Shown here: in pieces, positions 21,422 to 59,243 of the stretch | How the letters are laid out: every line of letters begins with the position of its first letter | Numbering within the stretch: position 1 is the stretch's first letter | From: Spironucleus salmonicida | Taxonomy: Eukaryota | NCBI RefSeq assembly: GCF_000497125.1 | Contig: NC_090597.1 | Location: forward strand, 1,127,797 to 1,191,796 | DNA length: 64,000 nucleotides | Direction of reading: 5' to 3' | Notes under the pieces: generated by a model | Seen by the model: only the letters and a program-made list of their open reading frames with translations | Databases searched by the model: none | What the model was told of the DNA's origin: nothing | Program-made: the position numbers and the translations under genes

Positions 21422-22030
21422 TCAGACATCGCCCCCAAGCGGTCCCTCTTCGTACCCGTAGCTCACGCAGTGCCGCGCGCTTGAACCCACGAAATCGATC
21501 ACGAGAATCCTCCCTGCTGGCGCGTGCACAACCTTTACCTTCGGGTTTTCCCAGACCTCGCCGCTGCCCTCAACGCCGTTGACGACAAACAGCTTGCCCC
21601 GCACGTCGCCCAGAACGCGGTCAAATAAGGCCGCCGGGCACCCAATTTTGCAGTTTTGAGGGCTGAACGGCGTTACCAAAACCGAACTTTTGGTCCGGAT
21701 CTGGCGCTGGATTTTCGTCGTTTGGACGCATGCAAATTCTGTCCAAAAAACCGGCTCGGCCGTGCCGAATTTGATGTGTTTCTTGGCTGGAAATGCCAGC
21801 AGTTTTCCGTTCCTTATTCGGTAGATTTGCTTGGATACGAACTGGTGCAGAATGGTCGAGAATTCGTGATCTGGAAACGGGTGCTCCGGAAGCTCCGGAT
21901 CGTCGAAGGTGAGCAGCGCATCGATCTAAAAATTAAGCCTGCCAATAATTCGTAGTATTTGCGGTAGTTTGTGCTTTAATTAGTAAATTTGGTTGATTTG
22001 CACTAATTTGAAGGTGCTGATAATCTACAT
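21422..22030 (-). CDS. Hypothetical protein (202 aa)
   Basis: MQIISTFKLVQ...GPLGGDV* continuous frame; GC rises toward the 3' end. Confidence 0.65.
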
Positions 22031-30830: not shown

Positions 30831-33293
30831 ATGACCAAACCTTCATAAGATACTGAGATCAAAAAAGGTCACACCGGTGACTACGTCATTAAGAAAACGA
30901 AGACCGAGTTGAGCGAGATGAGGTTTCCCAACCGATTCATAGTGGAGGACTACGCCGACGGCGACAACTCGGTCGTCCAGATCAACCCCACGAAGTTCGA
31001 CCAGCTGGAGTTGTTCCAGGACGACATCGTAGAGATTCGCGGCAGGTTCAAGAAGTTCACCCACGCCATGGTGACGCCCAACCCCAGCCTGGACCCGACG
31101 AAGATTCTGATGAATAAGTCAGTGCGCAAGAACGCCAACGTCAACCTCGGCGACATCGTCTCCATCCACGCCGCCCCGGAGGTGCAGCAGGGCGCCCGGA
31201 TCAAGATCCTGCCCTTCAACGACGATGTGGCCGGCTACACGGAGGACTTCTTCGACACGCACATCCGCCCGTTCTTCAAGGACAAGTTCCGCCCCATCAC
31301 CGAGAACGACACCTTCATCATCAACGAGGGCCCCAAGCCGATCGAGTTCAAGGTGGTCCTCGTCGACCCCTCCCCGGTGTGCATCGTCGCAGAGGGCGTG
31401 GAGATCTTCACCGAGGGCGACCCGATCTCCCGCGAGGAGGACGAGAAGACCCGCAAGGAGATGATCGGCTACTCGGACCTCGGGGGCATCAAGAAGGAGC
31501 TGCAGCAGATCCGCGAGATGATCGAGCTGCCCCTCAAGCACCCCCAGCTCTTCGAGAACCTCGGCATCAAGCCGCCCCGCGGCATCCTCATGCACGGACC
31601 ACCGGGCTGCGGCAAGTCCTCCATCGGGCGCGCCATCGCCAACGAGACCGGCGCCTTCTTCCTGCTCATCAACGGCCCCGAGATCATGTCCTCCATGGCC
31701 GGCGAGTCCGAGAAGAACCTCCGCTCCGCCTTCGAGAAGGCCGACGAGGAGGCGCTCGCCCGCGGCTGCGCCATCATCTTCATCGACGAGATCGACGTCA
31801 TCGGCGGCTCCCGCGAGGAGTCCAAGGGCGAGGTCGAGAAGCGAATCGTGTCCCAGCTGCTCACGCTCATGGACGGCATCAAGCCCCGCTCCAACGTGCT
31901 GGTCCTCGCCGCCACCAACCGGCCCAACGCCCTGGACGCGTCCCTGCGCCGCTTTGGCCGCTTCGACCGCGAGATCTGCCTGTCCGTGCCTGACATCGAC
32001 GGCCGTCTCAGCATCCTGAAGATCAAGACCAAGAAGATGCGCCTCGCCGAGGACATCGACTTCGAGTACCTGGCGGACAACACCAACGGCTTCGTGGGCG
32101 CCGACATCGCGCAGCTCTGCACCGAGGCCGCCATGCTCTGCATCCGCGAGAAGTCCGAGATGATTGACTTCGAGGAGGCGAACCTCCCCGCTGGCATGAT
32201 CGACTCCATGTTCATCGAGATGGCGCACTTCAAGACCGCGCTGAACTCAATCAACCCCTCCACGCTGCGCGACACGGTCGTGGAGATGCCCAAGACCACC
32301 TGGGACGACATCGGCGGCCTCCACGAGGTCAAGAAGAACCTCAAGGAGCTCATCCAGTACCCGATCCAGTACGCCGACCAGTACGAGCGCCTCGGCATCG
32401 ACCCCTCCCGCGGCTGCCTCTTCTTCGGTCCACCCGGGAACGGCAAGACGCTCCTCGCGAAGGCCATCGCGAACGAGTGCCAGTCCAACTTCATCTCCGT
32501 CAAGGGCCCCGAGCTCATGTCCAAGTGGGTCGGCGAGTCCGAGCGCGGCGTGCGCCAGATCTTCGACAAGGCCAGGCAGGCGCAACCCTGCGTGCTCTTC
32601 CTCGACGAGCTCGATTCGATCGCGAAGCACCGCGGCGGGGGAGGCGGCGGCGAGGGCGTGACGGACCGCATGGTGAACCAGCTGCTCACTGAAATCGACG
32701 GCGTGGGCGCCAAGAAGTCCGTATTCGTCATCGGGGCCACCAACCGACCTGACACGATAGATCCCGCCCTCATTCGCGGCGGGCGACTCGACCAGCTCAT
32801 CTACATCGGCATTCCTGACTATGATGGCCGTTTTGGTATTCTTTCGGCTGCTCTCCGAAAGTCAAAAATCGAAGACGGTATAGACCTTCAAAAAATAGCA
32901 CAAGCAACTGATGGATACTCGGGTGCAGACCTTAGCGAAATCTGCCAGAAGGCAGTTTAGTTTGCGATTCGCAACAGCGTCCGGAAATTCAATGAGGGAA
33001 TGGCGGCATGCGACGGCGATATGGAGGCGGCAAGGAGGCTAGAGACAGAATTTCAGAGCGGTGTTATCTAAAAAGAAGACTTTGTTAACGCGGTAAGGGA
33101 ATCCCGCTAGAGTGTATCGTCCAAGGATTTGATAAAGTATGAGGCGTTTAAGGAGATGTTCTGCGGGGGCGCGAGCAAGGGATCAAGTTCCAACGAAAAA
33201 ATCGTGAATTTCGACTTCGAATCCGTAGGGGCTCTGCTGAAACGGAAGCCCCAAGGCGGTAAAAAGGTCCTCAAGGACGACGAGATGTTCTGA
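30831..33293 (+). CDS. CDC48: CDC48/p97/VCP AAA+ ATPase, paralog A (820 aa)
   Basis: MTKPSQDTEIKKG...; N domain; D1 GPPGCGKS/IIFIDEID; D2 GPPGNGKT/VLFLDELD; reads through TAG 32958 to ...KDDEMF*. Confidence 0.95.
30852..32836 (+). repeat. Left arm of 1985-bp inverted repeat (shared CDC48 core)
   Basis: x maps to 75605-x; only two differences noticed (Ile/Val codon in EGDP[I/V]SREE; synonymous ATT/ATC in EMIDF). Confidence 0.95.
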
Positions 33294-33321
33294 GCTTATT
33301 ATATTATGAATAAATTAAAAT

Positions 33322-34281
33322 TCACGCCTCGGTGTTTCCGATCTAGCAGCTTCCGTTGGCCTGTTCCGAAATGCAGACTGTATCAGGGTCTGTGGGGACG
33401 ACGTTTTGTTGCTTTTTCTCTCCGAGCCACTCAGCTACGATGTACAGCACTACGCTACCGAGCATCCCGAAGCCGATTAGAATCTGCCACCATACAAACT
33501 TGCTCTTGAAATGCAAAACATCGACTGGGAATGTGAAGACGGGCACCAAAACGCTACACATCATGAAAAACACAGCATTGCTTCTTCCAATCACGTACAA
33601 ACCGAGGAAAATATAAAAAGCAGCAATTATTCCATACAAAACCAGAAGGCCAATGCCCCCAGCATTTGCTGCAACGAAAAGCGACGTCTCCAGACTCACG
33701 CAAAGCACCACACTTAAAAGCACGCCACTCAGGCCCATTTTACTCATATACTCGAAAGTGCTCATCTAGCTGCCGAATTTCTGCATCATAACGCTGCTAA
33801 GGCCGAAGAGAAAAGCTCCTAGAATGCCTAAAATGGAGCCTGTAAGCTTCGTTCCTGAGTAGTCAGTACCAGCAAACCCAGCAGAAAATCCCATGGCTAA
33901 TAAAACTGCGACAATATGGAGAGCTGTAAAACGGTTTTTGATGATACATAGTGAGAAAATTAGCGAAGCTGGCATCGCAAGCGTCTAGAAGAGCGAAACT
34001 GAGGATACGGATGTGAGAGGAAATGCGTAAACAATACATGCTGTACCAGCAAAATCTACTACTCCATTAAGTAAAGGAAAAATGCACTATTTCCAGTGCT
34101 TGTGCGAGCTAGGGAAAACTACCAGAATAGCCTAGAAAAAATAAAAAGTAAGCGTGGAGAAAAATGGCATAGATAGTGAATATGATGTATCTACTTGCTT
34201 TTAAATTATTCCAAGAGATGAATTTAGAATAGCAAGAATAAGTCCAAGTAAAAAAGTCACGGCGGTCTAAGCAAATCTCAT
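33322..34281 (-). CDS. DMT/EamA superfamily transporter, SLC35F-like
   Basis: About 10 TM segments; DFAGTACIVYAFPLTSVSSVSLFQTLAMP and GSILGILGAFLFGLSSVMMQ resemble SLC35F1/2. Confidence 0.75.
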
Positions 34282-35036
34282 TTGTGAAGTGTATGAATAC
34301 ATATATATGATAATAATATTAAATTAATCATTAAGTCTCATCAAAACTTAAAAAATATATAAGGTGATTCTAAATATAGCTAAGTATAATGGGTAAAAAT
34401 TATTGACATACCTTATTATATAAAAGATCTGTATGTAATTTGTATATAATAAAGCTTTATTCTCAAAGAAATATGTGTGGTTTTTTGGTATTATTAATAA
34501 ATCATTCAAATTGTGGTTTTATAATAATACAACTAATACGTATAATTTTAAGTAATTTCTGATTAGTGTCAACTTCTTTTTGTAATACTATATTCTAATA
34601 AAATAATAAATAATATTGATAGGAAACAAAATATTTTATTGAAATAATAATGTATGCTTAAACAGTTTGGCTAAAAATTTACAATATAAAATTTATGAGG
34701 TATTTAATTTCTATTTTAAAAATTATAATTGTGTTAGTTTCTCTATTATTATTGAAATGTAAGTATATAAATTATCCAAAGGATTAAAGTTATTTCGTGA
34801 CATATTAATATATATGAATTTTGAAATTTTTTCAAATTATATACAATGCCGTATATTATAATAGGAATAATATACAAATTATATATTAGTATATAATATT
34901 ATTTAAATATTAAATTTTCATTTAGAAGTTATATTTGATAATTGGTTAAATATTATAGTACATAATTATGATTTTGTCCACCAATTTTAATATATATATA
35001 TATATCTTCATTAATAATATAAATAAAACTTAAAAA

Positions 35037-36803
35037 ATGATTACTCTATTAACAGCATAATTTGGATATTGTTCCCCAACAGAAATGAATTTTTATACTA
35101 CTAAGTTTCCTTAATTCATTACAGAATGGTGGAATAGTAACCCCAATATATTTACGTCTTTGTTATCGTCTCCTAAGTTATAAGAGACATTTCAATTGCA
35201 AAAATAACAAAGAATTATTGTTGTTGGTACTTTACTGTAATATTTAGATGAAGATTTAATGAATATTAATAATATCATAAAAGATTATAAGTAAATTATA
35301 TAGATTCCCCTTCCAGATGATTCTACGATGGCTTAATATTTTGCCGCACTCAAAAGTATAAAGTTAGAGGATAATGATGTAATTTTACTTCCAGTATTTA
35401 ATTGTAGGAGTCATGATAATTTTAATCCGACCGAGACTCTTTATGATAGAACAAATAATTATTATAAAGGTTCTAATTAGCTTCCCTTTTCACGAATATA
35501 ATCGTTAGAATAAATTTAAGAGAGTATATAAGGATATAGAGATTTATTTACTCACACGGTAACTACCAGTTAAACTTATCATAGTTTTAATTTATAAAAA
35601 CTTTCAATGTAGAATATTTTAATTATCACATCTGCACTGGATATGACTTCATCACTACAATTTAATTCTCTCTAATTCTGTCATATATCTCCTAATTACT
35701 AGCCTTAAACATCTATTGATAGTTGCTTTATAGCTGTTCCAATAGGAATGGGTAACAGAGGTATTAATGGAACGGGCAATATAGGAAACGGATTTGATAT
35801 CGTGACTAAATTTTATCTTCAATTTGAAAGAAATTAGTTACAGATTCATCATATTTTTAATGCATTAAAAAGCGCAATTTCATTAAAAAAATAAAATAAT
35901 TATTAAATAGAAGGATTTGGTAACGGAATGACGGATTTATCTTCCATAAGTCATATTATAGAAATAAATTAATAAGATGATTCTAATAACATTTTTGATG
36001 TTATAACAGCTGGAAATATTAAATCTGGTTAAATATTATAACTTAAGACATTTTAAATTTTAAGAATTTATGTCACTGCTCGTGGTTCCGTTGATGAATT
36101 TAATCCTATTTATGAAAATACATATAAAACTTCGTTACCAAATAATTAAGACGCTATGTTGAAGTATCAAAATATTAGATTCTATATTTGTTAAAAGCTT
36201 GGTACACTATATATACCTTAATATATAGGATAGCTACGAGGACATAGAGGATCATATTAGTATCTTATTTAAAGCTCATAATTATGGGGATAGCATATTT
36301 AAAATGATGTAATAGTGTGGTTTTCATTTGAATCAGACATAGTTAAAGTATAGCATGAAATAGCTTAAAACTTATAAATAGACAATGATCTAACTGTTTC
36401 ATTATAGTTTATAGGGTATACAATTGATGTATCTTTGTTAAGTATTTCTGATCCAAGATATGCAACAAAAAATACAGCATTGTATTTTTAAACTGAAGCA
36501 CGACATATTTATTCTGCGTGTGTAACTAAAACAATTGTTACAGTAAAAAAGCATAATATTGAATTATATGGTGATGATGTTTTGTCTATATAATTTGAAA
36601 ACGGAGAAACATGTAATATTTATTTTTGCATTACAGAACAGTCTATTCTTAATGTAATGCAACATGACTGTGCTAGGTCTTATGAATTTTATGTTGATTA
36701 ATATTCATCCGCAAGAGTTTTTTATGCGGGTATTGCTATAGGTATATTCTTTTTAATCTATTATTTAATAGTAATAATTCTGGTTTCCCGCTATAAATCT
36801 TGA
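35037..36803 (+). CDS. Hypothetical type I membrane protein (588 aa)
   Basis: MITLLTAQFGYC... in frame with TGA 36801; C-terminal TM (VFYAGIAIGIFFLIYYLIVIILV) then SRYKS. Confidence 0.7.
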
Positions 36804-36944
36804 GTAATATTCAACATATTAGTATTAAGTATTATTGAATGAAAACCATTTAACCAACCGTAAGTGAGTCTATTTTAGATTTTTTTAGACATACAATATT
36901 ATATTAAGTTAAATTTATTATTACTCTCTTCTTTCCGCAATAAA

Positions 36945-37403
36945 ATGCCCTAACATAGTTTCCTTAAGACGTCAAAAGCATATGACACTTCATATGCACA
37001 AGGCAACTCAATTACTTATACTCCAACTCCATCTGTTGAAGAACGTTAATTTTGGTCATAATCTTAATACAACGAAACAAAACCGTTTGGCATGAATTTA
37101 GCATCTACTACCTTAACTACGTATGTTGAAAAACCATCAGCTTGCATTCATAATTGCACATACCATGCAAAGGATATTTTATGTAAATCACGTCCCATTA
37201 AATTAGATACTTCAACAAGACTCCCATCTAGCTACAATTAAACAGCTCTTAATGAGGCTCCTAGCAACTCTGCATTTGCAGAGAATAATCACAATCTTAA
37301 TGTTACTTTGCCTTTTGTTAGAGATCCAGCAAAGAGATTTACTACTGAAAAAGTAAAAACTTAAAGATATGTTAAAGATATAAAACCGGTTGGATGGTTC
37401 TGA
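36945..37403 (+). CDS. Hypothetical protein (152 aa)
   Basis: MPQHSFLKTSKAYDTSY...IKPVGWF*; CTTTCCGC upstream. Confidence 0.7.
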
Positions 37404-37489
37404 GAAAATTATTATCTCTATTTTTATTATTTAAATTCAATTATATTTTAGTACAGTATAATAATTAACTTTTTCACTTCAGCAAACAA

Positions 37490-37900
37490 ATGGATTTAAC
37501 AACAATTGACTTAACTAGCGCAAATTAAATCCCAAATGATCTTAAGTTCAACGCGGAGCTGGACTTCGTGAACCAGCTGGCCTACGACGAGTACGTGGTG
37601 TACCTGCTGGAGCACGGCTTCTTCGAGCAGGAGGCGTTCATCCGCTACGTGCGCTACCTGAACTACTTCGCCCGGCCCGAGTACGCACGCTTCCTCCGCA
37701 ATGCCCGCTCGGTGTTCTACCTGGAGCGCCTAACGGATGAGACCTTCCGGCGCAACCTGGCTGTGCAGATCACCATCGGCGAGGGCAGCGTGGCGGAGGA
37801 GCACACCTACTGCAACTTTCTGGACTACTGCCAGCAACAGAGCCAGGTGAGCCAGAACTACTTCGAGGCCAAGGAGCGTGCCGTCGAGCAGGGCGAGTGA
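37490..37900 (+). CDS. MED31: Mediator subunit Med31/Soh1
   Basis: KFNAELDFVNQLAYDEYVVYLLEHGFFEQEAFIRYVRYLNYFARPEYARFL matches RFEVELEFVQ.LA...YL.YL...YF....FI.YL.YL.YW..PEY. Confidence 0.85.
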
Positions 37901-37962
37901 GTGCGTGCCAGTGTGGAGCGGACGTTCCGGGCCTTATATATCTGCATCCGCGTCCCCCCAGA

Positions 37963-38175
37963 ATGTTCCGCCAAGAGGACGTGCAGGTCTTCCTCCGCCG
38001 CAACTTCCCCGGACTCAAGCTGGCGCACACGACGAAGCCCCTGCTCGCGGACCTCGCGAACCTGGTCGCCGCCGCCGTGCTGCTGCGGACCGTGCCGTCC
38101 GTGCGCAAGCGCCAGCGCGTGGAGGCGGGCCCGGCGGACGTGCAGCGGGCCATCGACCTGGTGCTTCCCGAGTGA
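37963..38175 (+). CDS. Minimal histone-fold protein (H2B/CENP-W-like, 70 aa)
   Basis: VQVFLRRNFPGLKLAHTTKPLLADLANLVAAAVLLRT...RQRVEAGPADVQRAIDLVLPE has the helix spacing of H2B IYKVLKQVHP...REIQTAVRLLLPGE. Confidence 0.6.
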   Translation: MFRQEDVQVFLRRNFPGLKLAHTTKPLLADLANLVAAAVLLRTVPSVRKRQRVEAGPADVQRAIDLVLPE

Positions 38176-38255
38176 TCGTAAGGCCTCACTGCCCGGGCCG
38201 TACGGCGCCCGTCGCTCTGTAGCCGCCAGGACTCAGCGCAGAACCGCAAACACAC

Positions 38256-38534
38256 TCACTCCATGGCCTGCAGCACCGCGAGCAGCACGTCCAGCTGGAT
38301 CGGCGCGTCGGCCTCGCGCGGGAACTTCCTACCGAGCCGCCTGAACTTGAAGCGGTCGGTGTCCTGCCGCATGCGGTGCAGCTTGGACGTGCACTGGGAC
38401 AGCGTGCGGTGGGGCAGGCAGTTGCCGATATCCGTCCAGTCGATATGGCCCGTGGGGAACACATGCGTCTCCACGTAGCGGAACAGGGTCTGCTCGTCCT
38501 CGAGGGGCCAGCAGGGCGCGCGTGTGAAGGCCAT
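38256..38534 (-). CDS. Single-repeat Myb/SANT protein, GC-rich copy 1
   Basis: MAFTRAPCWPLEDEQTLFRYV...IDWTDIGNCLPHRTLSQCTSKLHRMRQ; start set by alignment with 25233-25517. Confidence 0.9.
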   Translation of the reverse strand: MAFTRAPCWPLEDEQTLFRYVETHVFPTGHIDWTDIGNCLPHRTLSQCTSKLHRMRQDTDRFKFRRLGRKFPREADAPIQLDVLLAVLQAME

Positions 38535-39247
38535 TTGTAGCGGAGCGGCGTGTTTTCCGAGGGCAGTATATCCGGGTATCGCGGCGTAATACGCGACTCT
38601 AGGAATCTGGCGGCAAGCAGACGGCCGCGCAATGCGATATACGACGGATATTGTCGGGTTCCAGAAACGGTTTCTGGCGCGGTTGCGGGTATTGTGCCCC
38701 AATATGCGAGGTGGAGCGGGATGGACCAGAGATAATTCTGCATATCGCGGCGGAATACGCAGGTAGCAGTTCCACCAGTTCCAAAATGCACGGCTCGCGG
38801 GCGGGCGCAGCAGCAGAGAATCCCGCCCCAGTTTCAGTCCAAGTTCTAGTGAGAAATTGACAGTGCTCAGGTTAATATAATGGTAATGATGAGAAATCAA
38901 CCAGAGCCTAAATTAAAGATAAAATTCAAATTCAGAGCAGAGAAACTGATTAACTAAAGATAATTATTAATTTTGCTCCTTCAAATCATATTGTATTGGT
39001 CATTTGTGCAGAGACATTCAATCAGTTAGTTTAGACTGCCACTAAACCTTAGTTTTTGATTCACAATTACAATAAAAATAATTAGCTTACTATATAACAT
39101 ATTAGTCGATTAGCTATTTAATAAACTTAGTTATACTTCTTTATTTTATTTGTGTATAAATTTATATACAACTATCTCGATATTAAACTTATTTTCATTA
39201 AGTTATCATTATTTTATACAATATATACTTATAATATTTAAATCAAA

Positions 39248-41524
39248 ATGACTACTCAATTATAATACTATAAGTAAAGTTAAATAAGTCATCTACAAAC
39301 AACTTTAGATAAGTAAGTTAGTGATATTAATTAAGTAATAGACTTTATAGCAACTCAAAGTTATATTTTTATGAATCTCAAGAATGGTAAACTATTGCTT
39401 TCATAGAACAACACTTAACCATAATTTATAGACTAGTAAATTTTTAATCACAAATTTATAAAAATATTCATTAGTGACACCATAATATGTGTAGGTAGCG
39501 ATATTTTAGACGGCATAGAAGTTTACAGTGTAAAATAATATCAAATTAAGGATATGTTATTGAAAGAGAAAGGTATTGAAAAAGTTCAGATAAAAATTTA
39601 ATCTGTATAAATGACAGAAGATATGTAACATTTAGTTGTATTTGGCGAAATGAAATTTTATATACTGAACTTGAAGTAAACATTCCTTAAAATAAAAAAT
39701 AATAATATTACTATTTAGCTAGAATCATAAATATCTTTATTCTAAGTATTTTACAATAGGTATATCATTATTTAGTCTGAAAATATATAATAGATTCTAA
39801 AAATTTCTTTTTAAAATTAAAGTTTTGAGTTAATTAATCTACCCAAACTACAAATGTACAAATAAATTACTTGTGTAAATAAAGAAATTTTTGGTTTAAC
39901 TGATTAGGGAGTTGTTTAGTTGAATTTTACTTTTTAATAATAGTTTATTAATACGAAATTTACTCCAAAATTAATAATAACGTCATAAAATATAGAATCT
40001 ATTCATTCAATAGATGGTTTTTTAGGAATTACTGACAATGAAAATTTCAAAATATTTGATGATTCTTAGCTTTAAATTTTTTAAACTACTTAACTTTTTA
40101 CCAAACTGACATTCTTTTAAGATACATTTTTATTTTTGTAATTAAATTTTACTATTACACTATTTACAAAGCTATCAACTCATTTAATTGTTCATTAATT
40201 AATAAAAAATAATCTTGTAAATCATGCTCTTAAGTATAATTCGAGCAAAGATCTTGTATATTCTATATTAGCATTTTAATAATTTGATCAAAACAAGCTT
40301 AAAAGTGCATTTGAAAGCATACTTTTATGTTTACAACATGGATTTCCAATCGGCCTTGTCGTAAAGAAAATTTATAATAATATTATTTTTCTTGAATAGG
40401 TATTAGATCATATTTACTACTAAACAAATTAAACCACTATTGTTAATCTATTTCTTTGTGTTTTAATTAAAAATTAAAAATTCAATGAATTCACAAAATT
40501 GGTTCGTGAACTTGAGTAAGGTGATTTTAACCCTAGCCTTAATATTGATAATTTATTAATTTTATGCCAAGAGACCTAGTAGCTAAGCTTTTTAACTAAG
40601 GAGATATAGTTCAGTTTAGGATCATAAATGGAAGCAGTAAAGATTTTGGTACTTTAAAAATAGTATAACATGGTATTAAATTTTTTAGTGTGTTGTGAAG
40701 AATAGTATTTAAGCACATAAATATTATTATAATTTGGTGAAGAATTATTATAAAACTCAGACTGGAAGCTATTTTAAAAGGTAGTGTTAAATTTGCTAAC
40801 AGCTACTCCTCCTTCAAAATTAATCTCATTGGAACAATTTTATTCGAACGAAGATACATTTTGGTGTTAAGTAATATCTTATAGATCATAGAAATTCCCT
40901 TAAATCTATCCAATTGATATCTCGATATTTTTCCCGATTTTCGAAAACCATATTTAGTAGTTAACTGATATATACAAGCAGGTTATAAACCAAGCGATTT
41001 CAGGCATATTAAAGATAACTTTATCGGAAACAAGCATTTTAACATATTTTTAATTGCTAATTTTAACAAAAAGCGATGATGAAATCGTTCAATAATTACA
41101 AGGAATATCGTTATTTTAGGAGTTAAATTATGAATAGTTACTTAATTTATTTATTAATATTCAGTTCGTAAAATGTGTTATTTTCTGTTGCTAAAAACTA
41201 AAATTCGAAGTCTTATTAATTTAATATTATCTATTGTAAGGAGATATAGAATAAGCAATTTAAGTAGGCGAATTTAAACATAAATTAGAGTTATTGAAGG
41301 GTTGCGCTAAACAAGATGACTATCTTTAATAATTGATATAGACAGTTGACTTTAGAGAGTTCAATTAAGATCTATTAATAAATATAATATTAGGTGAGAA
41401 TAAACATATAAATTATATACAGGTATAAGATTTACTTCAAATACATATCAAATCAGATTAAATTAGCAATCAATGGTAATAAGAAGGCTAAGATCCGTTT
41501 GAGGTGCTGAGGAATATGCTGTGA
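39248..41524 (+). CDS. Large hypothetical protein (758 aa), possibly beta-propeller plus alpha-solenoid
   Basis: ATG 39248 in frame with TGA 41522-41524 (...QDPFEVLRNML*); interior partly read; family not established. Confidence 0.6.
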
Positions 41525-41724
41525 ATTTATTAGGATTTTATAATGCTTAAAATATAATACGATAAATTAATATTATTACAAACCAGGTATTTATGTTAAT
41601 TAATATATTAATAAATATATGAAATATAATAATATATGTTATGTAAATAAAAAATTTATTTATTATAATTATTATATATAGAAAATATGTATGCGCATTT
41701 TTCCAAAAAAACTTTCCTCATTAA

Positions 41725-42084
41725 ATGGAAGCACTTTTATCATCCTCAGTTTTGATTACCCAGTAGCCTATCAGAGCATTAATTTATGAAATAGATATGG
41801 AAAATTCACATGCGAATTTTTAAATTCAGTCATCGTTTGCAGAAGTTGAAATCCACAATCGCACACTGGACGAACTGAACAGGGACTAGTATGGAGGAAA
41901 CCAGGACAGAAATATTTCAAACGCTCTCTAAAAGATTAGAGAGGGTTAAACCACATTAAATTATATGCAGTCCACTCACTACAATGTTGAAATTAAGCAT
42001 TTTGAAGATGCCGATGAGGACTAAATTAAGCTTTACATCGAAAAGTAGCGATAAAAGAGCTTAACTATGGGTAAGAACAAGTGA
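41725..42084 (+). CDS. Hypothetical protein (119 aa)
   Basis: MEALLSSSVLITQQPIRALIYEID...MGKNK*, AAG TGA. Confidence 0.65.
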
Positions 42085-42100
42085 CATTTTTTTATATCAT

Positions 42101-42171
42101 GCACCACTAGTATAGCGGTAGTATGGCACCCTTCCAAGGTGTATGTCCGGGTTCGACTCCCGGGTGGCGCA
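42101..42171 (+). tRNA. tRNA-Gly(TCC)
   Basis: GCACCAC TA GTAT-AGCGGTA-GTAT G GCACC-CT TCC AA-GGTGT ATGT CCGGG-TTCGACT-CCCGG GTGGCGC A; one A3:C70 mismatch. Confidence 0.92.
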
Positions 42172-42248
42172 CATTTACCACTACTGTTCTAACTCTAGAA
42201 CATCTAAAATAAAACAGTACACTTATTACATAAAATTACCGCATTTAA

Positions 42249-44756
42249 TCAGAAAAATTCATCATCGTCTTTCTTCTTTTTAGGTACTGCTTCCTCCTTG
42301 ACAGCCGCAACGGCCACCTTCTTGCTACCCTTAGCCACAAACTTGAAACCCGCAACTTTGGGATTGTTGACATCACCACCCTGGCTGGCATCGCAAAACT
42401 GCATTTTGAACGCTTCATATTTTTTCAAATCTGAATCAGAAACACTCTATCTTGATGTCCTAACTGCCTGCTCGAAATTCCTCACAGTGAGTATTCCACT
42501 GCCAAATTGCTCCTCGAATTATCTACTTTTCCTCTCAAATTCTTCGATATCGACCTCTTCATTGGCGTCTTCTTTCTATTTTTTCTGTAAATTCAGCATC
42601 GACATATTAGCATTAAACTGCCCAACTGACTCTCTTATAGCCATTTAAACAGCTTTCTGACAGATTTCGCTCAGGTCAGCGCCAGAATATCCTTCCGTTG
42701 CGTCTGCTATTTGTGCCAAATCAACGTTTTCTTCCATTTTTGACTTCCTCAAAGATGCCTTCAAAATGCCAAAACGGCCATCATAGTCAGGAATGCCGAT
42801 GTAGATGAGCTGGTCGAGTCGCCCGCCGCGAATGAGGGCGGGATCTATCGTGTCAGGTCGGTTGGTGGCCCCGATGACGAATACGGACTTCTTGGCGCCC
42901 ACGCCGTCGATTTCAGTGAGCAGCTGGTTCACCATGCGGTCCGTCACGCCCTCGCCGCCGCCTCCCCCGCCGCGGTGCTTCGCGATCGAATCGAGCTCGT
43001 CGAGGAAGAGCACGCAGGGTTGCGCCTGCCTGGCCTTGTCGAAGATCTGGCGCACGCCGCGCTCGGACTCGCCGACCCACTTGGACATGAGCTCGGGGCC
43101 CTTGACGGAGATGAAGTTGGACTGGCACTCGTTCGCGATGGCCTTCGCGAGGAGCGTCTTGCCGTTCCCGGGTGGACCGAAGAAGAGGCAGCCGCGGGAG
43201 GGGTCGATGCCGAGGCGCTCGTACTGGTCGGCGTACTGGATCGGGTACTGGATGAGCTCCTTGAGGTTCTTCTTGACCTCGTGGAGGCCGCCGATGTCGT
43301 CCCAGGTGGTCTTGGGCATCTCCACGACCGTGTCGCGCAGCGTGGAGGGGTTGATTGAGTTCAGCGCGGTCTTGAAGTGCGCCATCTCGATGAACATGGA
43401 GTCGATCATGCCAGCGGGGAGGTTCGCCTCCTCGAAGTCGATCATCTCGGACTTCTCGCGGATGCAGAGCATGGCGGCCTCGGTGCAGAGCTGCGCGATG
43501 TCGGCGCCCACGAAGCCGTTGGTGTTGTCCGCCAGGTACTCGAAGTCGATGTCCTCGGCGAGGCGCATCTTCTTGGTCTTGATCTTCAGGATGCTGAGAC
43601 GGCCGTCGATGTCAGGCACGGACAGGCAGATCTCGCGGTCGAAGCGGCCAAAGCGGCGCAGGGACGCGTCCAGGGCGTTGGGCCGGTTGGTGGCGGCGAG
43701 GACCAGCACGTTGGAGCGGGGCTTGATGCCGTCCATGAGCGTGAGCAGCTGGGACACGATTCGCTTCTCGACCTCGCCCTTGGACTCCTCGCGGGAGCCG
43801 CCGATGACGTCGATCTCGTCGATGAAGATGATGGCGCAGCCGCGGGCGAGCGCCTCCTCGTCGGCCTTCTCGAAGGCGGAGCGGAGGTTCTTCTCGGACT
43901 CGCCGGCCATGGAGGACATGATCTCGGGGCCGTTGATGAGCAGGAAGAAGGCGCCGGTCTCGTTGGCGATGGCGCGCCCGATGGAGGACTTGCCGCAGCC
44001 CGGTGGTCCGTGCATGAGGATGCCGCGGGGCGGCTTGATGCCGAGGTTCTCGAAGAGCTGGGGGTGCTTGAGGGGCAGCTCGATCATCTCGCGGATCTGC
44101 TGCAGCTCCTTCTTGATGCCCCCGAGGTCCGAGTAGCCGATCATCTCCTTGCGGGTCTTCTCGTCCTCCTCGCGGGAGACCGGGTCGCCCTCGGTGAAGA
44201 TCTCCACGCCCTCTGCGACGATGCACACCGGGGAGGGGTCGACGAGGACCACCTTGAACTCGATCGGCTTGGGGCCCTCGTTGATGATGAAGGTGTCGTT
44301 CTCGGTGATGGGGCGGAACTTGTCCTTGAAGAACGGGCGGATGTGCGTGTCGAAGAAGTCCTCCGTGTAGCCGGCCACATCGTCGTTGAAGGGCAGGATC
44401 TTGATCCGGGCGCCCTGCTGCACCTCCGGGGCGGCGTGGATGGAGACGATGTCGCCGAGGTTGACGTTGGCGTTCTTGCGCACTGACTTATTCATCAGAA
44501 TCTTCGTCGGGTCCAGGCTGGGGTTGGGCGTCACCATGGCGTGGGTGAACTTCTTGAACCTGCCGCGAATCTCTACGATGTCGTCCTGGAACAACTCCAG
44601 CTGGTCGAACTTCGTGGGGTTGATCTGGACGACCGAGTTGTCGCCGTCGGCGTAGTCCTCCACTATGAATCGGTTGGGAAACCTCATCTCGCTCAACTCG
44701 GTCTTCGTTTTCTTAATGACGTAGTCACCGGTGTGACCTTTTTTGATCTCAGTCAT
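42249..44756 (-). CDS. CDC48: CDC48/p97/VCP AAA+ ATPase, paralog B (835 aa)
   Basis: MTEIKKG...; same D1/D2 motifs; reads through TAA 42645 to ...PKKKKDDDEFF*. Confidence 0.95.
42769..44753 (-). repeat. Right arm of 1985-bp inverted repeat (shared CDC48 core)
   Basis: Reverse complement of 30852-32836. Confidence 0.95.
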
Positions 44757-44844
44757 TTTAGAGGTTCTGTATAATCTTGAATTATATCATAACTATATAT
44801 AAGGTAGGATTTATTTGGAGTTCTTAAATGAAATGATATAAAGT

Positions 44845-45588
44845 TCATATTTTCACAATATCACAGCTACGTATAGTATCCTTTATGTTCAATATCATGT
44901 AGCTGCCTTATCCTATCCAAGAGCTTTTAAAAATAGTAGATTTTTCATCATTTATTATAGTATCTTTTTCAGTAGGACTTAAAAGATATGATGCTCCTAT
45001 CTATTCTTAGATTTAAAATGAATTTTCTTAAACAAGTAGCATATATGGCTTGTTATTATTCTTTAGTTACTATTTCAATCGTCTTCTACCAAGAATACTA
45101 TTTTTCCCCTATTTTATCAGTTTTAATGGTCCCATATTCATTTTTACCTCCTCACTACTATTAAGATTTACACGTATTATATTTTAACATATTTTCTTTT
45201 AAACTATTTCTTTAAAATCACTATCAGATAAAAATGGATTTTTCTCTTAAAATTTATCAATAGTTAAAATGCAACTAGGATAAATTTTATTTCGTTTTAA
45301 TGATGATATTATTAATGGTAATTGCTGCTTTTGCTAGAACAACCCATTAGCAACTAAGACTTTCATTATTAAAAAGTAAACCTTTTATAATTATTGTTAG
45401 TTTGCTAGTTGTAGAGTAAGTGATTAATAAAGCATAATATCTAAGTAAATTATAAATGACTATTTATAGCCAAGTAAATTTTTTACTTAAGCTTATACAT
45501 TAGTTAATTATCTAATTTATTATTAACATAATATTTAAAGCTTCAAAACGTTTATACTTATAAAGGAATATTAAATAGCAAAGAACAT
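44845..45588 (-). CDS. Possible hypothetical protein (247 aa)
   Basis: Frame open with TAR=Gln, but two + frames are also open here, so strand and start are uncertain. Confidence 0.3.
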
Positions 45589-45614
45589 ATAAAAAGTAAT
45601 CTTTATTACTTCCT

Positions 45615-45974
45615 CTTAAGTTCAACGCGGAGCTGGACTTCGTGAACCAGCTGGCCTACGACGAGTACGTGGTGTACCTGCTGGAGCACGGCTTCTTCGA
45701 GCAGGAGGCGTTCATCCGCTACGTGCGCTACCTGAACTACTTCGCCCGGCCCGAGTACGCACGCTTCCTCCGCAATGCCCGCTCGGTGTTCTACCTGGAG
45801 CGCCTAACGGATGAGACCTTCCGGCGCAACCTGGCTGTGCAGATCACCATCGGCGAGGGCAGCGTGGCGGAGGAGCACACCTACTGCAACTTTCTGGACT
45901 ACTGCCAGCAACAGAGCCAGGTGAGCCAGAACTACTTCGAGGCCAAGGAGCGTGCCGTCGAGCAGGGCGAGTGA
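45615..45974 (+). pseudogene. MED31: MED31 copy lacking the native first 17 codons
   Basis: Repeat begins at the LKFNAEL codons; nearest in-frame ATG is 45456 in unrelated AT-rich sequence. Confidence 0.65.
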
Positions 45975-46036
45975 GTGCGTGCCAGTGTGGAGCGGACGTT
46001 CCGGGCCTTATATATCTGCATCCGCGTCCCCCCAGA

Positions 46037-46249
46037 ATGTTCCGCCAAGAGGACGTGCAGGTCTTCCTCCGCCGCAACTTCCCCGGACTCAAGCTGGCGC
46101 ACACGACGAAGTCCCTGCTCGCGGACCTCGCGAACCTGGTCGCCGCCGCCGTGCTGCTGCGGACCGTGCCGTCCGTGCGCAAGCGCCAGCGCGTGGAGGC
46201 GGGCCCGGCGGACGTGCAGCGGGCCATCGACCTGGTGCTTCCCGAGTGA
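46037..46249 (+). CDS. Minimal histone-fold protein, copy 2 (Pro>Ser variant)
   Basis: Identical to 37963-38175 except TTKP>TTKS. Confidence 0.6.
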   Translation: MFRQEDVQVFLRRNFPGLKLAHTTKSLLADLANLVAAAVLLRTVPSVRKRQRVEAGPADVQRAIDLVLPE

Positions 46250-46329
46250 TCGTAAGGCCTCACTGCCCGGGCCGTACGGCGCCCGTCGCTCTGTAGCCGC
46301 CAGGACTCAGCGCAGAACCGCAAACACAC

Positions 46330-46608
46330 TCACTCCATGGCCTGCAGCACCGCGAGCAGCACGTCCAGCTGGATCGGCGCGTCGGCCTCGCGCGGGAACT
46401 TCCTACCGAGCCGCCTGAACTTGAAGCGGTCGGTGTCCTGCCGCATGCGGTGCAGCTTGGACGTGCACTGGGACAGCGTGCGGTGGGGCAGGCAGTTGCC
46501 GATATCCGTCCAGTCGATATGGCCCGTGGGGAACACATGCGTCTCCACGTAGCGGAACAGGGTCTGCTCGTCCTCGAGGGGCCAGCAGGGCGCGCGTGTG
46601 AAGGCCAT
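46330..46608 (-). CDS. Single-repeat Myb/SANT protein, GC-rich copy 2
   Basis: Same protein as 38256-38534. Confidence 0.9.
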   Translation of the reverse strand: MAFTRAPCWPLEDEQTLFRYVETHVFPTGHIDWTDIGNCLPHRTLSQCTSKLHRMRQDTDRFKFRRLGRKFPREADAPIQLDVLLAVLQAME

Positions 46609-47740
46609 TTGTAGCGGAGCGGCGTGTTTTCCTAGGGCAGTATATCCGGGTATCGCGGCGTAATACGCGACTCTAGGAATCTGGCGGCAAGCAGACGGCT
46701 GCGCAATGCGATATACCACGGATATTGTCGGGTTCCAGAAACGGTTTCTGGCGCGGTTGCGGGTATTGTGCCCCAATATGCGAGGTGGAGCGGGATGGAC
46801 CAGAGATAATTCTGCATATCGCGGCGGAATACGCAGGTAGCAGTTCCACCAGTTCCAAAATGCACGGCTCGCGGGCGGGCGCAGCAGCAGAGAATCCCGC
46901 CCCAGTTTCGCTACAGCTTTCGTGGTAGATCGAACGCTTGGTTATAATACCATAATATAATCTCATGTGGATTATATCTAAAGGAAACTAACAATAATAA
47001 TTATTAATACTATTTATTATAGACTGCTGATGCGATATTAATGAATAAAATAGACTAATATAATTTACCAAGAATTGTTTATTATGCATTAAAGCAGCTA
47101 ATTTTCTGATACACAAAATAAAAACTATTATTTAGAGTGCTCATTTCCATTACCCATATTAAGAAAATAAACTAAAGCAGAGGTGAAATGTAATTGTTAT
47201 CGATTTTATGCAATTCTTATATTTGAATATGAAGTTTATACTACAATTTAATGATAATAAACCAGAAAACTCATCAAATCTCGCTATATTTTCTATCTAT
47301 TGTCATAATAGCCTATTTAATCAATTAAAATACCTTTTTTTGTAATCTATTCAACATGTTACTTTTAATAATTATATTATAATTACGGATTTAAATGCAC
47401 TATTTACTAATTATTATATATTAAATATATAATATTACCTCATTGAATATAAAGTTTTCAAAAGTTTAAAATAATAATTTATAATAAAAATCTAAATCAT
47501 AAAAGAGAGCAATAATATTTTCTCTTTTTACAAAAACAACTAAACTACATAAGGATCTATCTAAGTATTGGTTTTAGAACAATTTATTTTTATTTTGTTA
47601 ATAATATAAATTTAAGTTTTAATATTGTAGAATAGTTTTACTAACACCATTTATAAATATAATATATAACATCAATAAAACGTGTTCAAATTATGTATAA
47701 TATAATTTTTCAATATATACTAATACTTTTTATTTTACAA

Positions 47741-55687: not shown

Positions 55688-57226
55688 TCACGTCACTATA
55701 TAATTAAATTAGTCATACGATCAAATTTCATCAGGGTTAATAATTTTAATTTTATGTGTCACGTGAATGCGCTTAGGAATAATACTAACTACAAACATAA
55801 TAACACAAAAAATTGATGAGCAGATAACTGATAGAGATGAAAACATAATATATGTGCTCCTTAAACTCTATTCCACTGAGTTTGATACAATTTAGTCTTA
55901 AAAATCATCATCTTCATTATACACATATATTACAACATATTTATGGTCTCTTAATGGTTCTATAATAGCAAACTCATTATTAGAAATATTATTTATAATT
56001 TTATTCATGGAAGAATTATACAATAATGAGAAATCATAAGTATCTTTAAAAAGTGTTATTCCAGATGAAAAATCTTCAGGAATATTAAAATAACCTACTT
56101 TGAATGTATACAAATTAGTTTATTCCAAAACACATTTTGAACTTGTCATTTAAAATTAAAATTCTATAGTTTTGCTGAATATTAAAATATCAAGGCCACT
56201 GAAGCAAGAAGGCTTAAACACACCTACTTATTATATTATTAACTAATCGCCTATCTGGAAATAAAATATAATATAGCGGTCTGTTAATTATATACGTTAC
56301 ATTTAGGTTAATATAAATAAACAATCTTCTTCATTTTCTGTAACAGCGCATACCATATTTCCGTCAGATTTGAAAATATTTTCATTAATTTTTCCTGAAA
56401 TATAATGATGAGTGTCTTTAATAACCATTTTTATAATAAAATTAGCTTTTGAAAAATCTGCAGCAAGCATAAATTTGTCTAATTCACCTTTATTTCTTTA
56501 AAACTCTAAAGCCATATAAGATGAAAAAATTGTAGTAGTAAGTCCTGTGAAAATATTTGGTTGTTTTACAATTACAATATCAGAAGTTGTATAATTTTAT
56601 GAGATGTGTATTCCATTCTATAGGCCAGTTAACATCAAAATAGCCATATCTACATAAGGTATTTCAGACGTTGCAGTAAAACAATAAGAAGTAGTTTTTG
56701 AATCAAACTTTTCAACACCTTTATCGAATTCGGATTTACCCTCCCTATCTGAATGAATCTTTAAGATTGCTTTTCTTTCAGTCAAGTCCTTTCCAATATT
56801 AGCCTAATCTATAACTATACATGATTAGTCTCCTTCAACAGTTAAATGAACCCCTGGAGTAATACTATTCAGCTTCTTTCGTATATTCAAAACACTTCCA
56901 ATGCTGAAAACTGTTGTCAGTTATGGAGAGTCTATAACAACAGTACTCGAAATAACGTCATCGTAGGCAGCACATTTTGTGCCACAATTTATTTTTAGTG
57001 AAATAGTTTTATTGTAACTGAAACCAGTAAATATTTATCCAATATTTAATGATGAATCTGGGAACTATAGTTAAACCAAAACTCCTGTTGGAAAATCGCA
57101 AAGAACTCCAGATTCACGGTTAAGCTAAATCTCCAAATGGTCCGAGAAAAGATTTAGTTGAGAACGTTATGTGTAACAGTCCATGGTAGATACGACACTA
57201 TACACTGCCAATAAATATATATACAT
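55688..57226 (-). CDS. Hypothetical type I membrane protein, tandem paralog 1 (512 aa)
   Basis: Signal-like MYIYLLAVYSV, DCYTQRSQLNLF...LCDFPTG, C-terminal TM. Confidence 0.75.
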
Positions 57227-57540
57227 TTTATAAAAGTAATTTGTATATCATTTATATAATATTATTCTCATACGTTTTTTGTTTTTAATAAAAGATCGTA
57301 TACTATAATATATATGTATTAAATATTAGATTTTTGTATACGTATTTTTAAAAGATATAGGTTATATAGCAAATTATGGAGAATATATTTTCAATAGTTT
57401 TGTTTATTTTTATACTATAAAATATGAACAAAATAATAAATTAACGAAATAATAAATGGTAGTAAATTTCACCTATTTAAAATCAAATCATTCCATTGGT
57501 TACTATATGCAAGTGTATTTAAAAAGGTTCATTTCATAGC

Positions 57541-59046
57541 TCATAGTTCCTCAATTACCTTAGCTTTCGATCTAACTACACTGCGCTTCTTTTTAGGCAT
57601 GATTGTTATAAAAAATACTCCTGTGCAGATTACGGCGTTTGACAACACTCCAACAACAACATAGAATAAATAGGTCGTCATTAAGCTAACTTAAACAGTA
57701 TCTGCTAAAATTTAATCTAAATACTTTCCGTCGGCACTAAAAATATATAATACCGTGTATGGTTCATTTTTTAAATTTTCAATAATTAAAAACTAATTCC
57801 TACTAAATTATATATTGATTTCACGTTTAGTCGAATTGTAGTCTTTTTGAAATTCCTTAATTGAATTAAATTTTGAAAACCCCAATGCTAGTTCTTTATC
57901 CGTGTGAAAATATCCCAAATCAAACGTATAATTAGATGTTTCGATCATTGGACAGTCTTAAATTAAATGATCAAAGCCGAACGTTAAATAAGATTTTCGA
58001 ATAATCACATTTAATGTTTAGAAGCAAGTAGAATAAAAATTTTTAACTTACTTAATAATCGTCACTTTGTCAATTTAGAAATAGAAGGTTACAATATATT
58101 CGTTTTTTGAATGCTGTTTAAAAAGTTATAAAATATGTATGCAATCAGCTTCGTTATCACTTAATGCGCACACTATATTTCCACCATTTTCAAAAAGACT
58201 TTTTGTGAAGTTTCCGGCGATGTAGTAATTAGTATTATTCAAATTAATTTTAAGGTCAAATTTTGTTTTAGCAAAAGATGTGGATGTGATAAAATTGTCA
58301 TACTCTGGGTCGTTTCGGTCAAACTCAATAGCTATATAAGAAGAGAATACAGTTGCACTTAATCCTGTAAATATATTTGGTTGGTTTGGTATACTAATTT
58401 GCGTAGATGTATAGTTTTCCGAGATCGAAATTCCATCTAACCTGCCTTACAGCATTAAAATTCCTGTATTCACGAACGGTAATGAAAAGTTAACTTTAAA
58501 ACAATATTAAGTATTATCTGCATTAAATTCCTCAGTTGGATTTAAGTATTAAGTTGAACCATCCCTATCAGACTATATTTTTAATATAACTTGTTTATCT
58601 GCTAAATTCTTTCCAATATTTGGTTAGTCTATAACCATACAGGTTATATCATCCTTAACAGTAAGATGAACTCCTGCATTAACACGACTCATCTTCTTTC
58701 GTATATTTAAAACACTTCCAATACTGAATAGGGTGGTCAGCTAAGGAGAATCTATCAGAACAGTGCTAGAAATAACATGATCGTAGTCAGCACATTTTGT
58801 TCCACAGTTAATAATCAAAGAATTTGTATTTTCATAGCTAAAATTAGTAAATACTTACCCTATATCGAGAGCAGAATCTGGGAATTATAATTGTACCATA
58901 ACACCTCTTGGAAAATCACAAAGATCTCCAGGATCATGTCTAAATTGAATCTCTAGATGGTTAATGAATAGATTTAGTTGAGAACGTTATGTGTAGCAGT
59001 CTATGGCTGATACATTGCTATACAATGCCAGTAGAACTACGTGCAT
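57541..59046 (-). CDS. Hypothetical type I membrane protein, tandem paralog 2 (501 aa)
   Basis: MHVVLLALYSNVSAIDCYTQRSQLNLF...LCDFPRG; clearly homologous to 55688-57226 but diverged. Confidence 0.75.
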
Positions 59047-59243
59047 TTTAATCATAGTATTTTAGTTATAAATATATACTAGAAGTAGAGTAAGTAAAGA
59101 TAATGTGTGAATATAAATTATAGGTTATAATGTGATTAAAAAATTTAATCACTCTTAATATGTTCGTGAACATATCATCTAATATATATTATAATAATTA
59201 AGTATATTTTTTGATATCTTTTTCTTCGCACCATTCCCTCGGA

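Follow-up and report, generated by a model that had tools for sequence, protein, structure and literature searches.

What determines where the AT-rich DNA of the hexamitid diplomonad Spironucleus salmonicida (Eukaryota) turns abruptly GC-rich? Sharp shifts from 30 to 70% GC, genes with high GC3s and raised GC in non-coding DNA have been described in this species (PMC1805757, PMC2874811), a pattern that the 2007 paper calls unexplained (PMC1805757), and duplicated regions are reported to contain 44.7% GC vs 30.7% (PMC9509377, 2022). The 2022 paper states this association and appears to name gene conversion only for the expansion of surface antigens; neither it nor the 2007 paper, whose supplements may hold per-gene GC or duplication tables, appears to give an account of coincidence at the level of repeat edges, of intragenic steps or of a conversion bias. 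Our literature search found no paper crediting the islands to biased conversion. The question is taken up here in a stretch of 64,000 nt (the window; contig NC_090597.1 of assembly GCF_000497125.1, positions 1,127,797–1,191,796 of the forward strand) and in an 860-kb sample.

Results

Tract edges in the window

TAA and TAG encode Gln in the genes of the window (table 6); the standard code, under which CDC48 is cut at TAA/TAG, was rejected, and whole proteins are obtained under table 6. The CDC48 genes and their parts are as follows.

30831–33293, + strand: CDC48/p97 copy A, 820 aa (table 6), with CDC48_N and two AAA domains
30852–32836, + strand: GC-rich part of copy A homogenised with copy B (1985 bp with 2 differences), GC3 0.93, free of TAA/TAG codons
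32837–33293, + strand: diverged tail of copy A, homologous to the B tail (52% amino acid identity over 152 aligned codons)
42249–44756, − strand: CDC48/p97 copy B, 835 aa, tail closer to Hexamita inflata CDC48 than to the A tail
42769–44753, − strand: GC-rich part of copy B homogenised with copy A, the inverted counterpart of 30852–32836

The CDC48 inverted repeat was first drawn as 30852–32959/44753–42646 (98.2% identical, 38 differences), and the MED31 direct repeat as 37540–38835/45614–46909 (99.7% identical, 4 differences). A first-pass annotation had placed GC jumps within tens of bases of the repeat edges, and this holds for six of the eight edges (≤40 bp), where maximum-likelihood change points lie 12–37 bp away; since the arms of one repeat have a common inside sequence, the eight edges amount to four independent tract ends. 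The CDC48 edge 32959/42646 had been misplaced: 36 of the 38 differences fall in 32837–32959, so the homogenised tract is 30852–32836 and its partner 44753–42769, with the true edge at 32836/42769. GC falls there at 32797 (interval 32782–32832), ∼40 bp inside the identity cliff and 160 bp from the edge first drawn. Breaks in the short-read contigs fall exactly at 30852, 32836, 37540 and 38835, beyond which the contigs continue into unique flanks. Repeat contigs have ∼2.3x depth in run X1 (23–25 vs 10); run X4 gives the same breaks with a small rise in depth (199 vs 169), the two runs representing one sample that may itself be the source of the window DNA.

Three more features of the window belong to this map.

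1–1810: GC island (GC 0.63) formed by the end of an inverted repeat of 4.9 kb, with its partner just beyond the window
61972–63056: GC island formed by the homogenised core of an old gene pair in direct orientation; its partner lies 11.6 kb downstream, and the two ends have diverged and show lower GC3
11325–14819/16032–19523: inverted repeat with a cysteine-rich membrane protein gene, 99.6% identical

Partners had been predicted for the two islands that have none within the window, and both were found just outside it. The repeat at 11325–14819/16032–19523 is the third of the window and was absent from the first-pass annotation. It has only 44% GC, and its GC steps are confined to the outer ends: from 0.61 there, GC declines to about 0.3–0.4 near the spacer.

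Near-identical cores within old gene pairs

Synonymous differences between the CDC48 copies number 1 in 640 codons of the core and 46 in 78 codons of the tail (17/32 + 29/46), where synonymous sites are near saturation and GC3 is 0.36–0.64. Because the core is near-identical and the tails are near-saturated, we conclude that the two genes are an old pair held alike by conversion. The direct pair at 61894–63078 has the same structure, with no synonymous differences over codons 51–350 and diverged ends; at both loci a near-identical tract thus lies within diverged yet homologous paralogs, as is characteristic of interlocus gene conversion. The CDC48 duplication is older than the identity of the tract implies: the B tail shares 59.5% identity with Hexamita, as against 52% with the A tail, although a faster rate of change in the A tail may play a part. 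All three full-length CDC48 entries from Hexamita belong to a single 90% cluster, represented by a protein with a B-like tail, and no ortholog of the A type occurs among 88 hits. At the one polarisable difference, position 31425, copy B shares Val with Hexamita, and copy A carries a G-to-A change. The tails had been described as dropping in GC after the shared tract; they do fall below the core, to GC 0.50 (A) and 0.41 (B), but their GC3 does not reach the background of about 0.2. Upstream of the genes, no homology above that of shuffled sequences was detected; an upstream ATG at 30810 would extend copy A to 827 aa.

A GC step within MED31

The MED31 direct repeat contains coding and non-coding DNA.

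37540–38835: copy A of the 1296-bp direct repeat, which occurs twice in the genome; GC 0.64, flanks without relation to the copy B flanks
37490–37900, + strand: MED31 copy A (Pfam Med31, E 2e-19), codons 1–17 outside the repeat and AT-rich
37963–38175, + strand: 70-aa ORF, GC3 0.96, no Pfam match
38256–38534, − strand: Myb-domain gene (domain match), 92 aa, GC3 0.95
38535–38835: non-coding segment of the repeat, GC 0.58, aperiodic, unmatched in Rfam and without a stable fold
45614–46909: direct repeat copy B, with the 70-aa ORF (46037–46249) and Myb gene (46330–46608) intact

MED31 is AT-rich up to codon 17 and GC-rich from there on, as first described: 3 of 16 third positions are G or C at codons 2–17 vs 110 of 119 thereafter (p 5e-10). 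Copy B lacks the native first 17 codons; its frame is open upstream, with the nearest ATG at 45456. A protein search for outgroup matches to the MED31 N-terminus returned only MED31 itself. The intergenic part at 38535–38835 is likewise GC-rich, and its GC is flat over codon positions (0.58/0.57/0.60). A coding reading of this segment was rejected, a 207-aa frame being present in copy B only and showing no periodicity, and a non-coding RNA was rejected on zero Rfam matches and a fold z of −0.96 (minus strand folded only). Homology between the 300-bp flanks of the two copies does not exceed that of shuffles (z 1.3–2.0), and for this reason conversion is not demonstrated for the MED31 repeat, nor can its age be dated.

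GC follows near-identical copies across an 860-kb sample

Gene counts in the 860-kb sample were restricted to the 313 interior genes lying at least 40 kb from block ends, 89 of which are near-identical duplicates. Mean GC per 200-bp bin is 0.507 in near-identical DNA (n=989), 0.330 where there is no local copy (n=2840) and 0.356 in diverged paralogs (n=94). The difference between near-identical and all other bins (0.167) compares with a maximum of 0.070 over 2000 circular shifts, tracts covering about 23% of the sampled bins (989/4300). The possibility that GC islands are no more often multi-copy than other DNA is contradicted by the genes as well: GC3 reaches at least 0.8 in 68/89 near-identical duplicates vs 3/175 single-copy genes (odds ratio 186), and at least 0.9 in 54 vs 0. 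The window itself supplies two controls that behave as the first-pass annotation had described.

55724–59055, − strand: AT-rich tandem paralogs that have diverged, with 71% identical DNA across 752 bp (GC3 0.19 and 0.25)
59244–59936, + strand: ribosomal protein L7Ae-family gene (RPL7A), single copy, moderately GC-rich (GC3 0.49)

The association extends to the edges themselves. Of 158 tract edges, 140 have the higher GC on their inner side and 95 have a step of at least 0.15, a size seen at 5.2% of random points; over about 100 bp, mean GC3 climbs from 0.36 to 0.76, and genes that cross an edge have the higher GC3 inside in 37/42 cases. Every codon family shifts toward GC, C- and G-ending codons alike, TAA/TAG make up 6% of Gln codons in tracts vs 76% in AT-rich genes, and a protein with 39% FYMINK has GC3 about 0.95. 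Gaps between called genes have GC 0.59 in tracts vs 0.215 outside. GC is thus raised where conversion occurs, whatever the coding status or strand, with a log-odds shift in non-coding DNA (1.7) about half that of four-fold sites (3.7).

AT-rich near-identical repeats do occur: GC3 is below 0.6 in 11 of the 89 interior duplicates and 0.22 in a 7-copy tandem array with a 2.2-kb unit. GC3 of 0.6–0.8 is found in 37/175 single-copy genes, whose distance to tracts is no shorter than that of AT-rich genes (p 0.67), and a genome-wide search of eight distinct stretches found no DNA copy for four. Per pair, identity does not correlate with GC3 (rho −0.06, 48 alignment pieces); when synonymous differences are pooled, their number per third position drops as GC3 rises (24/1872, 46/7801 and 16/9452).

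Conversion between nearby copies and the direction of the force

We propose, with a probability of roughly 0.7, that long-acting conversion between nearby copies, with repair favouring G/C, builds the GC-rich tracts. Local duplications, inverted or direct and mostly within about 45 kb, would template each other's homologous repair, which would hold the tract 97–100% identical while sequence past its edge drifts. Were mismatches during conversion resolved more often to G or C, synonymous sites in the tract would climb over long times from about 20% to >90% GC against AT-biased mutation, and the GC step would be placed where homology ends. Identity cliffs do lie inside old paralogs, GC is tied to tracts in coding and non-coding DNA, and a force toward GC is still at work. 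The bias itself probably lies in heteroduplex repair, that is, in fixation rather than in local mutation; AT-rich identical repeats would then be young copies, and single-copy genes at GC3 0.6–0.8 presumably former tracts whose partner was lost. The proposal of the first-pass annotation that long-term local conversion builds the islands is accordingly supported by identity cliffs inside homologous coding sequences at CDC48 and 61894–63078; this evidence does not extend to the MED31 repeat, and the GC bias of conversion stands as the probable rather than observed part of the proposal.

Minor alleles were counted in families of three or more copies from the 860-kb sample and five extra loci, a test with small counts and one dominant family. 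GC-rich families have 36 A/T vs 32 G/C minor alleles. Synonymous sites (12:7) are compatible with 1:1 (p 0.36) and also with the 78% or so expected under conversion bias (p 0.16), and this polarised spectrum rejects passive decay (p 7e-8); non-coding or uncalled sites (12:18), most of them from one 96–98% family, depart from the expected 63.5% (p 0.012). The test does not separate conversion bias from GC-ward mutation. An unlikely alternative is that conversion is unbiased and merely homogenises, while repeat-paired or repair-synthesised DNA mutates toward G/C, the opposite direction to fungal RIP. The same edges and the same association would be expected; the near-symmetric minor alleles (overall and non-coding) and the rarity of G↔C differences in 2-copy GC-rich pairs (4/88) favour it, whereas the synonymous counts fit fixation bias too, and the single polarisable CDC48 difference runs from G to A. 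We know of no precedent for repeat-linked mutation toward GC. Its fuller form is similarly improbable: mutation or repair would write G/C into paired duplicates, and AT-rich birth, maturation (GC3 >0.9) and orphaning (0.6–0.8) would set the entire three-mode codon usage of the genome, including the near loss of TAA/TAG Gln codons in tracts.

Further points favour the proposal of biased conversion. The genome contains two MutS-domain genes, and metamonads are reported to lack NHEJ and to keep HR, MMR and BER (PMC8516963). The S. barkhanus orthologs of 14 high-GC3s genes all have GC3s below 75% (PMC2874811), an indirect indication.

Alternative origins of the tracts

Quite unlikely is the reverse or feedback order of events, in which GC-rich blocks of other origin duplicate preferentially or their duplicates persist. 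It has also been proposed for primate palindromes (PMC8981503), would accommodate the single-copy genes of intermediate GC, and is left room by the MED31 repeat, whose age no diverged flanks attest. Against it, steps fall inside single native coding sequences where homology ends (the 37 of 42 genes above), the highest GC3 class is confined to duplicates, old pairs are GC-rich solely in their homogenised part, and passive decay is rejected.

Very unlikely is synonymous codon selection in duplicated genes for expression, dosage or mRNA stability. The synonymous response is twice that of non-coding DNA and codon use in high-GC3s genes is non-random (PMC1805757), but the GC of non-coding DNA is raised too, and the step lies within one mRNA and tracks DNA identity, a within-gene relation that argues against expression. 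RPL7A, at 0.49, and highly expressed genes, near 0.4 (PMC1805757), likewise fail to bear out expression level as the explanation of GC3.

Foreign GC-rich inserts or assembly artefacts, which sharp edges and high GC resemble, are largely refuted: the best match of the CDC48 tail is Hexamita, steps fall within native genes, frames cross the edges and use TAA/TAG as Gln beyond the tract, and the four break positions recur in short-read contigs, which run on into unique flanks. A horizontally acquired GC island was considered and rejected, the expected combination of foreign best hits, whole genes and a distinct amino-acid composition being absent.

Discussion

GC-biased conversion is itself known; the tracts of S. 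salmonicida most likely show it at unusual strength. The proposal gives the compositional puzzle described in 2007 a concrete cause that can be tested. If true, it describes an extreme GC-biased conversion of duplicates, with a shift at four-fold sites of about 3.7 log-odds units, in a lineage that reportedly lacks end joining and in which sex has not been observed. GC3 would then record duplication history, not expression or lateral transfer, and near-identical paralogs could be very old, with consequences in diplomonads for gene dating, transfer calls and gene prediction.

GC-rich rDNA and histone arrays in concerted evolution reportedly combine a high conversion rate with high GC (cited in PMC8981503). 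Those are large tandem families, whereas the tracts here are mostly 2-copy dispersed pairs and the sampled long tandem array is AT-rich. In primate X palindromes, where arm-to-arm conversion is described as GC-biased, arms are >99% identical, GC exceeds that of the flanks in non-genic sequence too, and GC is intermediate where sequence is thought to have left the arm (PMC8981503); the first two are also observed here, and the last is presumed for the single-copy genes of intermediate GC3. The primate contrast is 46 vs 41% GC, and that in S. salmonicida about 64 vs 25% (GC3 0.93 vs 0.2); unlike the palindromes, the tracts span 0.4–13 kb, include direct repeats and cut through genes, and the primate bias was polarised with outgroups (PMC8981503), that of S. 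salmonicida being judged from minor alleles within families. In human duplicates subject to non-allelic conversion, converted tracts have 48.9 vs 39.6% GC within the same gene and diverged parts escape conversion, as they do here (bioRxiv 10.1101/135152). The average effect reported in humans is small, whereas in S. salmonicida conversion appears to set codon usage in a sizeable fraction of the genes (89/313 interior genes are near-identical duplicates).

Repeat edges and GC steps in the window

Whole ORFs were found in the window under NCBI table 6 only and the best match of the CDC48 tail is Hexamita inflata, so the window is of hexamitid diplomonad origin; it corresponds to G000:C2:1127797-1191796 (G000, this genome; C1 to C6, its contigs) in a 14.5-Mb genome. 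Self-BLAST detected three repeats, the two already annotated and a third. The features concerned are:

30831..33293, +, CDC48 copy A
42249..44756, -, CDC48 copy B
37540-38835 and 45614-46909, copies A and B of the MED31 direct repeat (MED31, a 70-aa ORF and a Myb gene)
55724..59055, diverged tandem paralogs, control
59244..59936, RPL7A, control

The first-pass annotation placed GC steps at the repeat edges. Six of the eight edges it named have a GC change point at a distance of 12-37 bp, and these six amount to four independent tract ends because inside sequence is common to both arms of a repeat; the other two edges had been misplaced. Since 36 of the 38 differences between the CDC48 copies fall in 32837-32959, the identical tract spans 30852-32836/44753-42769. 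GC drops about 40 bp inside this identity cliff. The CDC48 tails do fall in GC as proposed, to 0.50 and 0.41, but both stay above background. The switch from an AT-rich to a GC-rich MED31 was borne out (GC-ending codons 3/16, then 110/119), as was the GC richness of intergenic 38535-38835 (0.58, without codon phase), where neither an Rfam match nor a stable fold was found. Both controls held on re-measurement. Sequencing runs X1 and X4 are of a single sample, from which this DNA may come; their short-read contigs break at 30852, 32836, 37540 and 38835, and contig depth at these repeats is about 2.3x in X1 and barely raised in X4. CDC48 copy B is followed immediately at its 3' end by a tRNA-Gly(TCC) gene (42101-42172). 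A short-period repeat at 63730-63970 weakly matches sequence close to several contig ends.

GC richness follows duplicated tracts across the sample

The check first proposed, GC against self-alignment genome-wide, was run on a sample of 860 kb, taken as four blocks from four contigs and including the window. The sample is about 6% of the genome, and a copy lying elsewhere would go unseen. GC islands proved far more often multi-copy. Among 4300 bins of 200 bp, the 989 near-identical to another place had a mean GC of 0.507, compared with 0.330 for 2840 bins without a local copy and 0.356 for 94 diverged-paralog bins; 377 bins were mixed. The excess of near-identical bins over all others (0.167) was above all 2000 circular shifts (maximum 0.070). 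A self-trained caller gave 479 genes (53% coding, an under-call relative to the published species density of 69.5%). Of these, 313 are 40 kb or more away from any block end, and the counts below exclude the 34 partial and 15 diverged-paralog ones among them. GC3 was at least 0.8 in 68/89 of these interior duplicates versus 3/175 single-copy genes, and at least 0.9 in 54/89 versus 0/175.

Tracts of 600 bp or more have 158 edges, not independent of one another, and at 140 of them GC was higher inside. Steps of at least 0.15 occurred at 95/158 edges versus 5.2% of random points, with reverse steps at two. In 37 of 42 edge-crossing genes the inside part had the higher GC3. Gaps within tracts between high-GC3 neighbours averaged 0.59 GC (36 gaps) and those between AT-rich single genes 0.215 (73 gaps), although some gaps may hide uncalled ORFs. 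For eight distinct stretches without a partner in the sample, genome-wide search returned a near-identical partner for four and none for the other four.

Conversion and recent duplication

Within the CDC48 core, 1/640 same-amino-acid codons differ between the copies, compared with 17/32 and 29/46 in two tail segments; tail identity is 59.5% between copy B and Hexamita, 46% between copy A and Hexamita and 52% between the copies. The gene at 61894-63078 shows no synonymous difference from its direct partner 11.6 kb away over codons 51-350, and the termini of the pair are diverged and lower in GC. Its protein is 39% FYMINK, yet GC3 is about 0.95. Judged from these alignments, the near-identity of both pairs is due to conversion and not to recent duplication. 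The MED31 repeat gives no age for its duplication because the flanks of its copies are unrelated.

MED31 copy B (45614-45974) lacks the native 17 N-terminal codons. Its frame stays open upstream into AT-rich DNA, where ATGs stand at 45456 and 45315. This copy may be truncated and owe its intactness to conversion alone. The Myb frame reaches an ATG at 46953 in copy B only (46330-46953, -; 207 aa). In runs X5 and X7, at a guess RNA, contigs pass from the non-coding part into the copy B flank by 103-159 bases. An inverted gene pair (2489-4033 and G000:C2:1110624-1112166; 67% identity, AT-rich, GC3 0.18/0.21) directly flanks both arms of a GC-rich 4.9-kb inverted repeat and is the outer part of an old duplication missed by homogenisation.

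Exceptions and intermediate compositions

AT-rich near-identical repeats exist, with GC3 below 0.6 in 11/89 interior duplicates. The clearest counter-example is a tandem array at G000:C2:1041130-1055953 (GC3 0.22) of seven 2.2-kb units, mostly 99-100% identical with the last partly diverged, which is probably a young amplification. Over 48 alignment pieces GC3 could not be predicted from identity, and the GC-ward shift was 1.7 log-odds units in non-coding DNA versus 3.7 at four-fold sites.

Single-copy genes have a second mode at GC3 0.6-0.8 (37/175 interior genes), no closer to tracts than others in the 860-kb sample. In this third compositional class, NCG codons are as common as in tracts and AAG, TTC and NCC are reduced. 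To it belong three window genes of GC about 0.45-0.52: 21400-21950; 26196-27041, a papain-family protease (GC3 0.62); and 33325-34200, an SLC35/EamA transporter whose GC3 is about 0.3-0.4 away from the CDC48-A tail and climbs to 0.83 on approaching it. No DNA copy of the first two was found in the genome.

Seven loci chosen by eye among the 158 edges (G000 C1:711393, C1:760594, C4:653833, C4:678223, C4:683362, C4:704473 and C6:721517) carry one-sided GC-rich overhangs, with GC beyond the edge of 0.48-0.70 in one arm and 0.22-0.33 in its partner, as if one arm had lost part of a longer tract. Long inverted arms (G000 C1:683-703k, C4:756-773k, C6:705-735k) are layered inside, GC3 0.87 adjoining 0.45 within one arm at 99.9% identity, which suggests growth in steps of different age.

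Direction of change

In GC-rich DNA of families with at least three copies, 36 A/T-minor and 32 G/C-minor sites were counted. A refined count (singletons only, components of more than eight copies dropped) gave A/T-minor:G/C-minor ratios of 12:7 at synonymous sites in genes of GC3 at least 0.8 and 12:18 at non-coding or uncalled sites. The expected A/T-minor share is about 98% under passive decay, about 78% under conversion bias and 50% under local mutation bias. Passive decay is ruled out by the 12:7 count (p = 7e-8). That count is compatible with the share expected for conversion bias (p = 0.16) as well as with the 50% of local mutation bias (p = 0.36), and the non-coding 12:18 deviates from its conversion-bias expectation of 63.5% (p = 0.012). 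Most of the sites stem from one 96-98% family, and polarity is blurred by shared-stem changes. Because passive decay is rejected, we conclude that a GC-ward force, be it conversion bias or local mutation bias, is currently active in the tracts.

Mechanism and precedents

The most likely cause of the GC tracts is repair from a nearby copy with mismatch resolution towards G/C. Breaks would be repaired from that copy and mismatches resolved towards G/C, so that the homology edge becomes a GC edge; young copies would still be AT-rich, and orphaned tracts would decay. In metamonads NHEJ is reported missing and HR, MMR and BER are kept, according to PMC8516963, and this genome has two MutS-domain genes; frequent template-directed repair is therefore plausible, which is not in itself evidence of a bias.

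The feature is real, has strong statistical backing and exemplifies GC-rich ectopic conversion tracts well, with an unusually large effect. The class of process is known, and both the GC islands and their association with duplicated DNA have already been published. As far as the available portions of these papers go, sharp GC shifts and raised non-coding GC have been described in Spironucleus salmonicida, with highly expressed genes at GC3s of about 0.4, lateral transfer argued against as the source of the shifts and the cause left open (PMC1805757); none of 14 genes above 75% GC3s has an S. barkhanus ortholog that high (PMC2874811); and duplicated regions have 44.7 versus 30.7% GC (PMC9509377). 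In keyword searches screened by title and abstract opening, with thin coverage of subscription journals, no paper joining this species to biased gene conversion was found. As far as these searches reach, the edge-level coupling of GC to tracts and the mechanism are unpublished. The closest mechanistic precedents are PMC8981503 and bioRxiv 10.1101/135152.
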